The position numbers were made by a program, and so were the translations under genes. DNA of 64,000 nt from a virus (Duplodnaviria; Caudoviricetes): the IMG/VR virus record IMGVR_UViG_3300021431_000075, positions 384,001-448,000 of that record; one strand, given 5' to 3'. The notes beneath the pieces were generated by a model. That model had not been told where the DNA came from. It did not search any database and saw only the letters and a program-made list of their open reading frames with translations. Below are positions 46,194-53,400 of this stretch, piece after piece. Positions within the stretch are counted from its first letter, which is position 1; each line of letters begins with the position of its first letter.

Positions 46194-46225
46194 ATGAACT
46201 ATTATACGGTATTTATTTTCATCTT

Positions 46226-46233
46226 TATAAATA
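46226..46233 (+). promoter_or_regulatory. T4-type late promoter TATAAATA
   Basis: Exact T4 late consensus upstream of the gp4-like gene, divergent from the late promoter at 46210-46217. Confidence 0.7.
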
Positions 46234-46284
46234 TATCAAAATGATTTTGCAAAGATAGCAAAATTAAATTATTCATACAAGATA

Positions 46285-46854
46285 ATGAGTCTGAATAGCG
46301 ATTATAAGAAGAAGCACAAGCCGCTGAAAGAAGGTGTCGGAAGATATCACCAGGGTTACTATGTGCCGAAGTTGCATCCGGAGAAATGCGTTACGTTGGG
46401 AGAGAACGTGTATAGAAGCGATTGGGAACGCAGGCTGATGGACTGGTTTGACAGGTCGCCGAGCGTGGTGCGCTGGGGTTCGGAGCCTATTTCGGTGCCG
46501 TACTTGAATCCTATCGCAAATTTCAACTATTGTGTGAGCCACGGTTTGGATCCGAAGAATCCGAGATACTGGAAGAAGATGAATTATAACATCGACTTCT
46601 GGGCAGAGATGATAGACACGAACAATGTAGTGACGAAGTATTTCATAGAAGTGAAGCCGTATGCGCAGACGATAGAGCCGAAGCCGCCAAAGGATGGCGC
46701 GAAAGTTGCTGACTATAAGAAGTACAACGAGCAGATGAAGACGTATCTTGTCAATCAGCAGAAATGGCTTGCTATGGAACAGTTCTGTGAAGAACATGGA
46801 TGCAAGTTTATGAAAGTGACAGAGCATACGTTGAAGAAACTCGGTCTTTTGTAG
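46285..46854 (+). CDS. Head completion nuclease (T4 gp4 / TnsA-like endonuclease)
   Basis: YHQGYY.P..PEK, YRSDWE, WGSEPISVPY, YNIDF, IEVKPYAQT, NQQKW. Confidence 0.88.
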   Translation: MSLNSDYKKKHKPLKEGVGRYHQGYYVPKLHPEKCVTLGENVYRSDWERRLMDWFDRSPSVVRWGSEPISVPYLNPIANFNYCVSHGLDPKNPRYWKKMNYNIDFWAEMIDTNNVVTKYFIEVKPYAQTIEPKPPKDGAKVADYKKYNEQMKTYLVNQQKWLAMEQFCEEHGCKFMKVTEHTLKKLGLL

Positions 46855-46892
46855 TTAAAAAAATAAATACAATAAATTACAATTTTGTGTTG

Positions 46893-49568
46893 ATGAAAAT
46901 AGATATAGGTCTCGAAAGAGAAGTAGATTCAATCATAAGAAAGCATATAGATGAATATATGCAGTCAAACAATGATGATATGTTTTTAAATGAAGCCGAT
47001 TTGTTTTTTGACAGAAACGTGCAACTGATGAGTCCTTTCGACCCTGATGGAAGCAGATATTCATGGGGAGGAGGTTCTTCAGCCCGTGGTAGTAAATTTT
47101 ATGAAGAGTTAAGATTAGCAAAAGAAGAACGTGAAGTTGACTTCATATATGGAAAGTATCTTCAGAAGTTCTTCAAAGAGCAGATAACTCATCCGTTTAA
47201 GTGTGACGGTCTCATCAACACAGAAACAGCATCTGGAAAGAAGTTAAAGATCATATTCGAGTACAAGTATGATTTAGATTTTAAGAAGAAGAAAGATATT
47301 GCAGAAGTACTTGTACAAGTTGTTTATTACTTAAAGAAATTCGAGAACAACGGTCAGCCGTTACCTAATATTTGTTTTATTGGTGATATAAACGAGTGCT
47401 TTGTTATGCACACTGATGTGCTTAACAAGTACCTCGATGAACCGGTTGATTGGAATTCTGCCCCATCACATGCAAAGTTCACGAATGGCACGCTTGTTAG
47501 CAAGATTGCAGCAGACAAAGATATCAATCCGTTTGTATTCTGGATTGACGAGAAGTTCAAGTTGTCTGATGTTATTGACTGTGTTTCTGATTTGGCAGAG
47601 AACGTTCAGAGACATATTCATATTACTTCTCACAATATCGGTTCCATTTATGAGTATTTCTGTGATAGAGTTCTTATAGACAAGAACAAGATTTCTACGA
47701 AAGATTCTGTTGCTATTTTTATCGGTGTCTTAACAGACAAGGAAGAGTATTATATGCATCCAAGAAAGAAGAATACTCTTGTTGCGGCTCCGTTGAATAT
47801 GGAAGTTGGTGTCAAGAACGATGCTTTGGATGCATTCTTCAGTTACTTTACAGAGAACTATTCAGTTGCAGAGAGACGAGTATTCAGCGGAATTGCTGAT
47901 AGATTGATTGAAGATGCAGATAGAAGAAAGAGCGGTGATTTCTGGACTCCGACAAAGTGGGTTGACTATGCACATCAGAGAATCAGCGAAGTTGTTGGTG
48001 ATAACTGGAAGAATGAGTTTGTTGTCTGGGATAACTGTGCTGGAACATGTAACTTGACAAGAGACTATAAGTTCAAGGAATTGTATATTTCGACTTTGTT
48101 TGACAGCGAACTGCAGATGGGAAAGAAGTTCAACAGAGAAGCAGTGCATTTCCAGTTTGATTTCTTGAATGACTTTATTCCGATGCCGGGAGAACTTGTC
48201 AAGAGTGATTGCAAGTTGCCTGATGGTTTGCTGGATGCTTTTGAACAGAACAAGAAGATTATGTTCTTGATAAATCCGCCATATGCATCGGGTGTTGATA
48301 GTGCTCGTGGACAAGAAACTAAAACCGGAACAGCAATCAATGCAACAAATAGAAATATGATTGCGGATGGCTATGGAAAATCTGCACAGAATCTTTATAC
48401 ACAGTTTTTATATAGAATTGAAAAGATTAAACAAGAATACGATTTAACAAATTTGTATATTTGTATATTTTGTCCAACGTTGTTTATGACTGGTGGTTCT
48501 TTTGATAAATTTAGAAAATTCTTTTTTAATGATTTTGATTATGTTAGTGGATTTCAGTTTCAAGCCAGTCAATTTGCTGACGTTGCATCAAATTGGGGAA
48601 TTGGTTTTACGATTTGGAAATCTGGAAAAACATTAGATAAAGAGAACTTCGAACTTGATATTTGTGATGTTGATAAAAGTAGTTATACAGGAGATGTTGA
48701 AATAAAAGACCAGAAATGTTTGTATAATCTTGATTATTCACAGACGTTAAGAGAATGGACAATCGAACCAGTGAAGAAATTGAAAACATTTGATATGCCA
48801 AATGTTTCAAGCGGAATAACAGTTAAAGATTCTGTAAATAATCGTGGAAGAAATTTCAAAGGTGCATTTGGTTATTTTCTTTCTAATTCAAATAATATAG
48901 AAAAAAATGCTCAGAGTGTAAGTTTGTTTACTACACCAGTTTCAATGGGTTCTGGTTTTGGCATCAACAAAGACAATTTTGATAGAGTAGTTGTGTCATT
49001 CTCTGCAAGAAGACTTATTATAGCAGATTGGACAAATTGGACTGATGAATATCTTGCTCCGGATGAATCCCATCCGGATTATAAAGAGTTTGTGAATGAT
49101 TCGGTTGTATTCTCATTATTTGAATCCAAGTCAAACCAATCATCTCTCCGTTCTGTCGAATATAAAGACAAGTCTTGGGATATCAAGAACGAATTCTTCT
49201 GGCTTTCTACAAGCGCTATGCAGAAACTTGCAGAGAATTTTGACAATGATGATTGCTATGATGACGCATTGACATCAGATGAAAGATTCGTTTATAAGTA
49301 TCTTCAAAACATAACTCTGTCAAAAGAAGCGCAAGCAGTTCTTGACTATGCAACAAAACTTGTCTATCAGTCGTTCGAGTTCAGACAGATGTTCGATGAT
49401 GACTATCCAGATTATCAAATCAATAACTGGGACTGTGGTTACTATCAACTCAAGGCTCTCTGGAAGGCATATATGCCGGAAGAACTTGCAAAGTTCAGAA
49501 CTTTGTTCAACAATCTTGCAAATAAGATGAGACCTATGGTATATGAACTCGGTTTCTTGAAGAAGTAA
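46893..49568 (+). CDS. Type IIG-like fused restriction endonuclease / amino-methyltransferase
   Basis: KCDG...FEYK...QVVYY (PD-(D/E)xK-like); GDFWTP; VWDNCAGTCNL (motif I); INPPY (motif IV). AATAAATA at 46862-46869 supports ATG 46893. Confidence 0.8.
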   Translation: MKIDIGLEREVDSIIRKHIDEYMQSNNDDMFLNEADLFFDRNVQLMSPFDPDGSRYSWGGGSSARGSKFYEELRLAKEEREVDFIYGKYLQKFFKEQITHPFKCDGLINTETASGKKLKIIFEYKYDLDFKKKKDIAEVLVQVVYYLKKFENNGQPLPNICFIGDINECFVMHTDVLNKYLDEPVDWNSAPSHAKFTNGTLVSKIAADKDINPFVFWIDEKFKLSDVIDCVSDLAENVQRHIHITSHNIGSIYEYFCDRVLIDKNKISTKDSVAIFIGVLTDKEEYYMHPRKKNTLVAAPLNMEVGVKNDALDAFFSYFTENYSVAERRVFSGIADRLIEDADRRKSGDFWTPTKWVDYAHQRISEVVGDNWKNEFVVWDNCAGTCNLTRDYKFKELYISTLFDSELQMGKKFNREAVHFQFDFLNDFIPMPGELVKSDCKLPDGLLDAFEQNKKIMFLINPPYASGVDSARGQETKTGTAINATNRNMIADGYGKSAQNLYTQFLYRIEKIKQEYDLTNLYICIFCPTLFMTGGSFDKFRKFFFNDFDYVSGFQFQASQFADVASNWGIGFTIWKSGKTLDKENFELDICDVDKSSYTGDVEIKDQKCLYNLDYSQTLREWTIEPVKKLKTFDMPNVSSGITVKDSVNNRGRNFKGAFGYFLSNSNNIEKNAQSVSLFTTPVSMGSGFGINKDNFDRVVVSFSARRLIIADWTNWTDEYLAPDESHPDYKEFVNDSVVFSLFESKSNQSSLRSVEYKDKSWDIKNEFFWLSTSAMQKLAENFDNDDCYDDALTSDERFVYKYLQNITLSKEAQAVLDYATKLVYQSFEFRQMFDDDYPDYQINNWDCGYYQLKALWKAYMPEELAKFRTLFNNLANKMRPMVYELGFLKK

Positions 49569-49590
49569 CAAATACAATCATTTTCAAATA

Positions 49591-49625
49591 AAATCTACTC
49601 TTTCTGTCAAGAGTAGATTTTTTTT
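49591..49625 (+). terminator. Intrinsic terminator after the R-M gene
   Basis: AAATCTACTCTT-TCTGTC-AAGAGTAGATTT plus T-run. Confidence 0.8.
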
Positions 49626-50725: not shown

Positions 50726-50971
50726 ATGAAGACAACTATTCAATTGGACATAGAGATTTCAGATGCATTTCTTGACAAGTGGAATACAGGAATGCTCGGT
50801 TTCTTTATGGACTCTTGCAATAATGATGATGAGGCATTGAAGAAAGTTAAAGAGAACTCATATGAGAATACTCTTGCATCTTGGATAGAAAGACAGATTA
50901 CCGACTATCACCAAAACTCAATAACAAGTTGCAAGGCTTCAATCATTAAAACAGACACTGACAGCGAATGA
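50726..50971 (+). CDS. Hypothetical protein
   Basis: 81-aa ORF, ATGA coupling to the GT10 gene. Confidence 0.7.
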   Translation: MKTTIQLDIEISDAFLDKWNTGMLGFFMDSCNNDDEALKKVKENSYENTLASWIERQITDYHQNSITSCKASIIKTDTDSE

Positions 50972-51942
50972 GAACGATAAACTTGGCATTCGAGCATTTG
51001 TATGATGACTTTGATGTTACGAATAACATATTCACAGACTTGTTGAGCAACTATTTCAATATTTGTATTTGTTCATACAAGACAAAGAGTCCTGAAGATA
51101 TAGACTTGCTAATATATTCAAGTTTTTATACATTGGAGAACAGGAATCTCATAGAGGATCATTATGCTGATGTGAAGAAGTTGTTCATATCCGGTGAGAA
51201 CGAGAGTCCGAACTTTAACATTTGTGACTTTGCTATGACTTGCAATGATATAACGTTCGGCAATCGTCATTTCAGGTTGCCTTATTATGCAATGTCATAT
51301 TATAATAAGGAACTACCGGAACGAACATGGGATGACAGCCTGTTTGACAGGAAATTCTGTTCTTTTGTTGTTAGCAATTATAATCTTTCTAACCCGGCAA
51401 GGTTCAACGTGTTCCAGATGCTCAATAATGAGTATAGCAAGGTTGATTCAGGCGGCATGGCTTTCAACAATATCGGAACATCCGGTGTTAAAGACAAGCA
51501 CGAGTTCATTTCCCAGTACAAGTTCAACATAGCAGGAGAGAACTCGTTCGTTGATGACTATGTCACCGAGAAGATAATGGATGCGTTTGCAGCGCGCAGC
51601 ATTCCGATTTATATAGGAACTGATAAGATATTCAGGGATTTCAACAAGGAAGCGTTCATATACTTGGATAACTATGACTATGAGAATCTTCTGAACAAGG
51701 TCCGCAAGGTCAACGAGGATAAGGAACTTTACAAGCATATGATGACAGTTCCGATATTCAACAGGGACGGTGTCATGGACGAGTACATAGATGGATTGTC
51801 GGAGTATCTTTATAACATTGTAGAGAACTGGCATCCTTATGATCACAATGGCGGAAGAATATACGGACAGAGGATGATGTTTAAGTCGCTGTTTGATATT
51901 TTGCTGCAGTTCGAGAAAAGTGATTTGGTTCAATTTTCTTAA
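50968..51942 (+). CDS. Glycosyltransferase family 10 (alpha-1,3/4-fucosyltransferase-like)
   Basis: ISGENESP, RKFCSFVVSN, VDSGG, FISQYKFNIAGENS..DYVTEKIMDAFAARSIPIYIG (GT10 signature). Confidence 0.9.
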   Translation: MRTINLAFEHLYDDFDVTNNIFTDLLSNYFNICICSYKTKSPEDIDLLIYSSFYTLENRNLIEDHYADVKKLFISGENESPNFNICDFAMTCNDITFGNRHFRLPYYAMSYYNKELPERTWDDSLFDRKFCSFVVSNYNLSNPARFNVFQMLNNEYSKVDSGGMAFNNIGTSGVKDKHEFISQYKFNIAGENSFVDDYVTEKIMDAFAARSIPIYIGTDKIFRDFNKEAFIYLDNYDYENLLNKVRKVNEDKELYKHMMTVPIFNRDGVMDEYIDGLSEYLYNIVENWHPYDHNGGRIYGQRMMFKSLFDILLQFEKSDLVQFS

Positions 51943-52257: not shown

Positions 52258-53400
52258 ATGAATGAGATAGTTAATGTGAATGATTCAAGCACTGGTGCTA
52301 ATATGCTTGTTCGTTACTCGGAAGAGTTGAATTCTCTTACCGAGAATGACAAGGAGAAATACCGTGCTCTTACAAGTCAGATTGATGTTGACAATCCCCG
52401 TTCGGTGTCTTCGTTCGGATATGATATTAACATGACTCTGGCAAATCAGGCAGATGTTTTGCTGGAAAAGTCGAATGCGAACAAGGCGTCTGAATTCAAC
52501 AAGCTGACAAGCGATTTGTTGATACAAATCAAAGATATTGGCTTGGCAACAGAAGAAGATGAAAAAGACAACAAGTATTTTGATTGGATGAAGTCTCTTC
52601 CTTTTGTCAATCGTTTTGTCAAGGTTGCCACTGATGTTAAAATCAAGAATGCCAGTCCGAAAGAGAACGTGGACGAAGTCAAGAAGAAGATTCAGTCGTT
52701 GTCTGTTCTTGCACAGAAGGAGATTGCGGTTCTTGATGAAATGTACAAAAACATGGTGAGTTATAAGAAAATGAACCGTGAAAGAATCATAGCATTGATG
52801 CTTCTTGAGAAAGAGGCTAAAGAATCTATTGAAAAACTCGAATCAAGCGGAGAGTGGATCGACGCTTATGAGATGCGAAACAAGAAGAAATTCTTGAACG
52901 CGCTGTCTAAACGCATAACGGATATGAGCATGATTGATGTCGAGTTTGATACGACTCTCCATCAGATTGATGCGATTTGCGGCAACTATGATACAATAGT
53001 TTATAATGCGCAAGTCATTGTCGGACAGGTTATCCCGATATGGAAGAATCATATCGTCATCGGCAACGAGCAGAGCACGCAGAAACTTTGCGCTGACATG
53101 GAAGATAAGGTTCGGACGTCTGCAAACGACATGCTTAAGAAGAATGCTGAAATGCTGAAACAGAATAGCATCGAGATTGCCAAGATGAACGAGGCTCCTG
53201 TCTTTGATATTGACACTCTGAAGAAATCGACAGAGACTTTGATTGAGACAATCAAGGAAGTTGATAACATTCACAAAAAGGGTCAGGAATCAAGGGCTGG
53301 CATCGTGAAGGAAGTCGAGAATATCAAGCAGAGACTGTTAACGGCAATAGACGAAAACACTGCAAAAAATCTGATTGGAAGTGATTCCCATTTTATCTAA
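52258..53400 (+). CDS. telA: TelA/KlaA-like toxic-anion resistance protein
   Basis: All-helical 380 aa; SVSSFG, LPFVNRF, VIPIWKN, NDMLKKNAEMLKQNSIEIAK, DIDTLKKS. Confidence 0.8.
   Translation: MNEIVNVNDSSTGANMLVRYSEELNSLTENDKEKYRALTSQIDVDNPRSVSSFGYDINMTLANQADVLLEKSNANKASEFNKLTSDLLIQIKDIGLATEEDEKDNKYFDWMKSLPFVNRFVKVATDVKIKNASPKENVDEVKKKIQSLSVLAQKEIAVLDEMYKNMVSYKKMNRERIIALMLLEKEAKESIEKLESSGEWIDAYEMRNKKKFLNALSKRITDMSMIDVEFDTTLHQIDAICGNYDTIVYNAQVIVGQVIPIWKNHIVIGNEQSTQKLCADMEDKVRTSANDMLKKNAEMLKQNSIEIAKMNEAPVFDIDTLKKSTETLIETIKEVDNIHKKGQESRAGIVKEVENIKQRLLTAIDENTAKNLIGSDSHFI

Follow-up and report, generated by a model that had tools for sequence, protein, structure and literature searches.

Introduction

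In phage T4, the unrelated late proteins IPI, IPII, IPIII and Alt carry a short N-terminal leader that ends in a hydrophobic-x-Glu motif and is removed by gp21 (PMC9026906). These capsid-targeting leaders have been engineered to package EcoRI and staphylococcal nuclease (PMC9026906). Chlorovirus virions carry restriction endonucleases, which are thought to degrade host DNA minutes after entry, and the viral genome is protected by methylation (PMC7019647). Here we analyzed a single-chain nuclease-methyltransferase of 891 amino acids (aa), termed P0001, whose coding sequence lies at positions 46893..49568 (plus strand) of a 64,000-nucleotide (nt) stretch of DNA, hereafter the window. The window covers positions 384,001 to 448,000 of IMG/VR record IMGVR_UViG_3300021431_000075, a phage record of 673,114 bp that has direct terminal repeats; the phage is an uncultivated megaphage of gut or rumen source. 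Judging from a lineage-specific leader, an invariant protease-type motif, a conserved promoter spacing and natural controls that lack these features, it is quite possible, if slightly short of probable, that P0001 is a leader-tagged restriction-modification (R-M) enzyme that is packaged in heads and delivered with the phage DNA. Packaging of this particular copy appears a somewhat weaker possibility.

The proposed arrangement resembles that of T4, as judged by sequence alone, in having a short N-terminal leader on unrelated late proteins with a hydrophobic-x-Glu end for removal by a gp21-type protease, and the phage encodes both a gp21-family protease and a gp23-type capsid protein. It differs in that the T4 leader has about 10 aa, whereas here a helix of about 25 aa is followed by a linker, and a conserved peptide lies after the predicted cut. 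The chloroviruses differ further: they infect eukaryotic algae, encode their Type II nuclease and methylase in small genes that are separate from each other, package the nuclease alone, and have no leader and protease system.

The initial annotation had named DarB of phage P1, which is made up of a methylase and a helicase, as the precedent for packaging. DarB is a large (250 kDa) virion-carried protein that acts against host restriction, is not Type IIG-like, and has an N terminus whose first 30 residues suffice to send a reporter into the head (PMC9024508). Its loading needs other Dar proteins, among them DarA, Hdf and Ddr. P0001, with 891 aa, showed no helicase-like part in its model or in the fold search and no homology to DarB; Dar partners were not searched for. 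The DarB precedent is therefore a loose one, since P0001 lacks the helicase part and differs in size, and the T4 capsid-targeting sequences and the packaged chlorovirus restriction enzymes would be closer precedents. Each part of the proposed design is well known, and we found no description of a natural fusion of a leader with a single-chain R-M enzyme for a phage. If true, a phage R-M enzyme that naturally carries such a leader would add a new twist to the T4, P1 DarB and chlorovirus themes.

Structure-based identification of the enzyme

Sequence searches with P0001 gave no match in Pfam (even at an E value of 10), PHROGs, NCBIfam, PADLOC or the sequences of the Protein Data Bank, and a tblastn search against 50,697 GenBank phage records also returned no match. 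The Pfam models Eco57I, MmeI_* and N6_Mtase and the NCBIfam models left P0001 unmatched even at E 10 or 1, and the nearest named Atlas clusters, with scores of 0.87-0.94, are look-alikes only. An AlphaFold model was built on 65 homologues and had a mean predicted local distance difference test score (pLDDT) of 87.9. A Foldseek search using this model revealed DrdV (Type IIL) as the top match (E 6.8e-11), followed by BsaXI, BpuSI (Type IIG) and MmeI. VIA-align placed model residues 67-669 on residues 7-788 of the DrdV chain with a Z score of 19.1, and from residue 66/67 onward the model aligned with the N termini of DrdV and BsaXI. The methylase core (residues ~346-615) aligned with M.TaqI, HsdM, CamA, BpuSI and MmeI with Z scores of 15-17, and the model range up to residue 887 aligned with the recognition parts of MmeI, CamA and M.BseCI. 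The best structural matches, DrdV, MmeI and BpuSI (Type IIL/IIG) and BsaXI (Type IIB), have the same domain order as P0001, with about 13% identity in structural alignments and no sequence-level match to solved structures. Because no curated model matches it, P0001 is a Type IIG/IIL member by structure and architecture and not a member of a named sequence family.

The domain order of P0001 is an N-terminal nuclease, a helical connector, a methyltransferase and a target-recognition domain. The PD-(D/E)xK nuclease domain (residues ~67-240; 47091..47612, plus strand) includes E79 and contains the motifs C104-D105-G106, E123-Y-K125 and Q142..Y145. The gamma-class N6-adenine methyltransferase domain (residues ~346-615; 47928..48737, plus strand) contains GDFWTPT (348-354), VWDNCAGT (378-385; D380-N-C-A-G-T385) and NPPY (461-464), and is followed by the target-recognition domain with a C-terminal helical bundle (residues ~616-891; 48738..49565, plus strand). 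In an alignment of 65 sequences, the nuclease positions E79, D105, G106, E123, K125, Q142 and Y146 and the methylase positions G348, T352, G384 and N461-P462-P463 were invariant, which argues that the motifs are not due to chance. The Type IIG-like identity given in the initial annotation, together with its intact-looking nuclease and methyltransferase motifs, was thus borne out by the fold search and by the invariant catalytic residues, and P0001 is very probably a complete single-polypeptide R-M enzyme of the Type IIL/IIG kind.

It is a good deal less likely, indeed quite improbable, that the protein is in practice a methyltransferase only, that is, an orphan-like anti-restriction enzyme whose nuclease domain is silent or regulatory. 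Orphan methylases are common in phages, in line with this possibility. However, E79, D105, E123, K125 and Q142 do not vary anywhere in the family, the phage clade included, and the bacterial copies stand alone, as expected of a self-contained R-M enzyme.

A lineage-specific N-terminal extension

P0001 carries a 66-aa N-terminal extension that is absent from DrdV, MmeI, BpuSI and BsaXI. Almost every homologue starts at a position corresponding to residues 62-73 of P0001, with stop codons a few codons upstream of its start. We looked for the extension in 68 loci from bacterial genomes and 64 loci from IMG/VR viral contigs (about 130 homologues) and found it in none of them. Unextended enzyme copies were likewise present in four further huge phages of 330-412 kb that have a gp23-type capsid gene. 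Because about 130 bacterial and phage homologues start at residue ~67, the extension is lineage-specific. An alignment with bacterial homologues had been proposed in the initial annotation as a check on whether the extension is phage-specific, and none of these homologues has P0001's N terminus; the extension is, however, 66 aa long (34 aa through LNE and 32 aa after it) and not about 35 aa as first described.

The model of the extension contains a helix at residues 5-25, a weak helix at residues 31-45 and a disordered segment at residues 46-66. Residues 1-34 (46893..46994, plus strand) form a putative removable leader, in which the helix ending in I19-D20-E21 is followed by an acidic linker and by L32-N33-E34. 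The latter (46986..46994, plus strand) is a predicted prohead-protease motif, with the cut expected after E34, and is followed by ADLFFDR. The part of the extension that would be retained, residues 35-66 (46995..47090, plus strand), consists of the peptide ADLFFDRNVQLMSPFDPDGSRY and a Gly/Ser-rich linker and is predicted to be disordered (pLDDT 34-41). The conserved peptide after LNE was sought elsewhere in the genome and proved unique to the P0001 gene.

A metagenome scan identified six orthologous loci (L140, L141, L143, L144, L145 and L166), which are 68-77% identical to P0001 and all belong to Lak-type phages, in which TAG is read as Gln. The genetic code of the window's phage is standard: TAG serves as the stop codon in 89 of its 644 crude gene calls, and under table 11 coding sequence makes up 91% of the genome. 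The extensions of the orthologues share one layout, comprising a helix, a short acidic linker, [L/I]-N-E, the peptide (A/D)DLFFDRxxQLMSPFDPDGxRY and a glycine-rich linker. The [L/I]-N-E motif is invariant in all eight aligned orthologues. Over the 27 codons from LNE on, L144 and L141 differ by 18 synonymous and only 1 non-synonymous codon changes; the conserved peptide after LNE is under strong purifying selection. In a FastTree phylogeny of 99 sequences, the extended copies form one fully supported clade together with the copies P0005 and P0007, and this clade is sister to copies from gut/rumen huge phages and Bacteroidota.

These data also bear on whether the extension might be an annotation artefact, with translation starting at an internal Met and no leader being made. 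The open frame of P0001 begins at 46800, and 46893 is the first ATG past the stop codon of the upstream gene (46854); internal Met residues are present at positions 23, 30 and 46 and could serve as such starts. However, the amino acid sequence is conserved across the extension in the six orthologues despite many synonymous changes, and every one of the seven copies has the promoter motif 23-29 nt ahead of its first ATG, so that an artefact is very improbable.

Relationship of the extension to a helical leader family

Two families of N-terminal leaders occur in the genome of the window's phage. An acidic family, LNESLLDxVExDEVxD, is found on about 49 proteins, and a helical 27-mer family, MRKQNKRALYESIMRDVAKVVKRRLNE, is found on 13-17 proteins. 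The helical leader precedes unrelated protein bodies, which include WG repeats, a metallopeptidase-like protein and proteins of unknown type. One helical-leader protein, L223 (genome C1:660035-660649), gave weak matches to M56, SprT-like and M48 zinc metallopeptidases, all below the cut-offs. We also considered the acidic family as the source of the extension, and hhalign found no match (P 0.069).

The extensions of the orthologues open with clear copies of the helical leader, e.g., RKRNLYTEIMNEVAKVVKWEIDS and EKRELYKKVINEAAKIVKHQIEM. A hidden Markov model (HMM) of 13 nearly identical leader copies left P0001 undetected and found the copy P0004 at E 33; this HMM was too narrow, and a profile-profile comparison with more orthologues was needed. 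A broad leader profile could not be built from database sequences, because a leader copy used as a protein-search query returned only six proteins. In the profile-profile comparison, a profile of eight extensions matched the helical-leader family with an hhalign P of 1.9e-9 and a probability of 96.3%, and single orthologue extensions matched the leader profile with P values from 3.5e-9 to 1.7e-5. As a control, 130 other N termini of this genome were compared in the same way, and only genuine diverged leader copies scored as high. By these profile comparisons, the extension of the orthologues is homologous to the phage's helical 27-aa leader family. In P0001, I19-D20-E21 aligns with the L-N-E of that family.

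Prohead protease and predicted cleavage sites

T4 gp21 and its relatives in giant phages cut after Glu in short motifs (PMC9026906, PMC5694885), and propeptides can be long with several such sites, as in SPN3US (PMC5694885). The window's phage encodes a 612-aa protease-scaffold protein with a gp21-type domain (phrog_207, E 3.9e-22; Pfam Peptidase_S77, 31.6 bits versus a cut-off of 27) and an acidic, scaffold-like tail. This protein holds five [LVM]NE sites (VNES, LNES, VNES, MNEN and VNES), compared with about 0.6 expected by our own arithmetic from the background rate for a protein of 612 aa. Among the phage's proteins, 19% have [LIVM]NE in the first 60 residues, compared with 6.3% of background 60-aa windows. 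Because 6.3% of background windows have one, a single [LIVM]NE in this region is weak evidence alone, and the weight of the LNE in P0001 comes from its invariance in the orthologues. The phage also has a gp23-type capsid gene (Pfam Gp23 match), whose product contains L55-N56-E57 near the position of the T4 maturation site. In a MAFFT alignment with T4 gp23, LNE57 did not fall opposite the known T4 cut site, and the capsid site is therefore a candidate only.

A late-type promoter motif upstream of the extended copies

The sequence AATAAATA (46862..46869, plus strand) lies 23 nt before ATG 46893 and resembles a late promoter. The genome contains 262 copies of ATAAATA, which is about the number expected from base composition. 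Over half of these are found on the coding strand no more than 80 nt upstream of a gene start. Their number peaks at 19-33 nt, a zone in which 115 of the 644 crude gene calls have the motif. ATAAATA also lies 28 nt upstream of the protease-scaffold gene and is present upstream of 11 of 13 helical-leader genes. The spacing is 25-29 nt in the six orthologues and thus 23-29 nt before the ATG in all seven extended copies. The initial annotation had placed the gene under a late promoter of its own, and the late-type promoter motif was borne out; P0001 is predicted to be expressed late. The unextended viral copies L072, L073 and L076 have a Bacteroidetes-type TAnnTTTG 19-43 nt upstream and not the late motif at late-promoter spacing, and a gp23-type capsid gene was confirmed in the L072 and L073 records.

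In the recoded orthologues, the enzyme gene contains 5-7 in-frame TAG codons. At L143, none of the 18 neighbouring frames contains TAG, and the enzyme gene is the sole such frame in 14.6 kb. A frameshift near residue 153 divides the L143 enzyme copy in two. A proposal given in PMC11165621, which cites Borges et al. 2022, is that TAG recoding limits translation to late genes and holds late proteins back.

Proposed packaging and delivery

From sequence we infer that the enzyme is active, made late, packaged, cleaved and delivered, and these events would combine as follows. An ancestor of the lineage may have taken a single-chain R-M gene from the gut/rumen gene pool, placed it behind the phage's late ATAAATA promoter and fused to it the 66-aa extension, made up of a portable helical cargo leader, [L/I]-N-E, a conserved 22-aa peptide and a glycine-rich linker. 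The enzyme would be made late and would methylate progeny DNA, and the leader would carry it into the prohead, where the gp21-type protease would trim it after E34 and possibly also after E21. On infection of another cell, the enzyme would arrive together with phage DNA that is methylated beforehand and could immediately cut unmodified host or competitor DNA. Head loading and delivery with the DNA are suggested because the lineage added both a late promoter and a cargo-type leader.

Several points weigh against this proposal. In contrast to T4-type leaders, the extension is best conserved downstream of the proposed cut, and the mature protein would keep this highly constrained peptide. This suggests another or an additional role, such as a nuclease latch or a binding motif; the stretch QLMSPF within the peptide may resemble clamp-binding motifs. 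Late expression alone also fits a methylase that merely protects progeny DNA. That the leader family is a capsid-targeting signal is itself something that we infer. When the extension alone was searched against 5.8 billion proteins, only the 93% orthologue was returned, and the whole extension is thus not itself a portable module. P0005 and P0007 belong to the clade of extended copies yet have little or no extension; either the extension was lost or their starts were mis-called. Finally, P0001 and the 93%-identical P0002 lack the first half of the helix ('KRxLY') in the alignment, and the P0001 leader alone matched the leader profile only with an hhalign P of 0.025, as did P0002 alone. The link to the leader family made in the initial annotation therefore stands for the orthologues and is faint for the window's copy, whose helix is the most diverged one and may no longer work.

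This divergence would be explained if the leader works in the Lak-type relatives and is a decaying relic in the 673-kb phage, where the enzyme would be made late but not head-loaded. Six orthologues score between 1.7e-5 and 3.5e-9, far from the value of about 0.025 for P0001 and P0002. However, LNE, the downstream peptide and the promoter spacing have all been kept, I-D-E sits at the aligned position of the family's L-N-E, and about 10 residues suffice for targeting in T4 (PMC9026906). We therefore regard a relic as improbable, although less so than a silent nuclease domain.

Packaging may also not occur at all. The late-made R-M enzyme could act only in the producing cell, where it would methylate progeny genomes and degrade unmodified host or co-infecting DNA, with the extension tethering a partner or restraining the nuclease. 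Late-expressed DNA-modification genes are well known in phages, e.g., mom of Mu, and the late promoter motif of P0001 would suit such a function. The best-conserved part of the extension, downstream of LNE, occurs in this gene only and has the predicted disorder of a short binding motif, and the window's leader helix is degraded; both agree with action in the producing cell. On the other hand, this explanation leaves unaccounted for the helical leader that the orthologues have in common with about 16 unrelated late proteins, as well as the invariant [L/I]NE at the junction. Confinement to the producing cell is rather unlikely, although more credible than a relic.

A bolder form of the packaging proposal is that a removable leader brings an active R-M enzyme into the head and that the enzyme, fired into the next host along with the pre-methylated phage genome, strikes pre-emptively at the DNA of the host, prophages, plasmids or competitors. 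The retained peptide would act as a latch that holds the nuclease inactive next to packaged DNA. The candidate for this latch would be the retained N-terminal peptide DDLFFDR..QLMSPFDPDG.RY. We regard this form as rather unlikely, and as less likely than head packaging as such.

The head-packaging proposal lends itself unusually well to testing because natural controls exist: hundreds of bacterial and phage homologues without the extension, among them three viral copies with host-type promoter motifs, can be compared with the seven extended copies that have the late motif. The predicted diagnostic peptide of the cut form is ADLFFDR (DDLFFDR in the relatives) with a non-tryptic N terminus, and the uncut form would give a peptide spanning MFLNEADLFFDR.

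Family distribution and the specificity cassette

Homologues of P0001 are numerous. More than 1887 clusters at 90% identity were found among the scored candidates, and an exhaustive search gave at least 1571 clusters (1571 representatives at 50% identity, E <0.001). The bacterial loci that we examined include rumen and gut Bacteroidales, Prevotella, Clostridium isolates, Gastranaerophilales, Saccharibacteria and Treponema. No recurring gene neighbour was found across the bacterial loci, which fits a self-contained, stand-alone enzyme. In L029 (Clostridium nigeriense), the family gene adjoins a Type I R-M system, and in L043 (Salinicoccus halitifaciens) it is near a PLD-like gene; both are cultured isolates and would permit direct biochemistry on this unmodelled family. 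Twelve related viral contigs (L083, L086, L093, L094, L096, L098, L118, L120-L122, L125 and L126) share one gene order around the enzyme gene, with a protein of about 800 aa encoded upstream and proteins of about 215 and 270 aa encoded downstream. Because the family is invisible to Pfam, NCBIfam and PADLOC, surveys of R-M and defence systems in the gut and rumen are probably missing it.

Within the gene, a mosaic low-GC specificity cassette covers residues ~441-720 (48213..49052, plus strand). P0003 and P0001 are 92-100% identical outside residues 441-720 and only 32-77% identical inside. The GC content is 26-32% in the cassette and 37-43% in its flanks. The specificity part is a mobile, swappable module.

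Genomic context

The upstream neighbour of the P0001 gene is a T4 gp4-type head-closure gene (46285..46854, plus strand; phrog_218, E 3e-34; Pfam TnsA-like N). The initial annotation had noted the position beside a head-completion gene. The gene neighbours in the window have none in common with those of the orthologous loci, and the adjacency, which is not kept in the related phages, carries no weight. A terminator-like hairpin with a 13-pair stem followed by a T run (49590..49621, plus strand) lies just 3' of the P0001 stop codon.

The 31 in-frame codons ahead of the P0001 start (46800-46892) overlap the end of the head-closure gene and read MQVYES...FVVKKIN. They were considered as a helical leader; the likeness is faint and not significant (hhalign P 0.031), and would be a relic or due to chance. 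Farther upstream, a 91-nt gap (46194-46284) separates the head-closure gene from a divergent WG-repeat gene and contains one late motif per strand: ATAAATA precedes the minus-strand (WG-repeat) start by 16 nt, and TATAAATA precedes the start of the plus-strand head-closure gene by 51 nt. Downstream of P0001 are genes for a GT10 fucosyltransferase (50968-51942; Pfam, E 9e-19) and a TelA-like protein (52258-53400; E 1e-46), and the late motif is absent from the first 50 upstream bases of both.

In another part of the genome, the strand that carries the protease-scaffold gene also has, some 0.8 kb upstream of that gene, an open reading frame (ORF) ending in ...FPDDF...GNAVPV (L137:2689-3267, minus strand; about 627086-627664 of genome C1); a single small ORF separates the two. 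On visual inspection, the ORF with this ending resembles the C-terminal part of a C5-cytosine DNA methyltransferase and is a candidate for such an enzyme.

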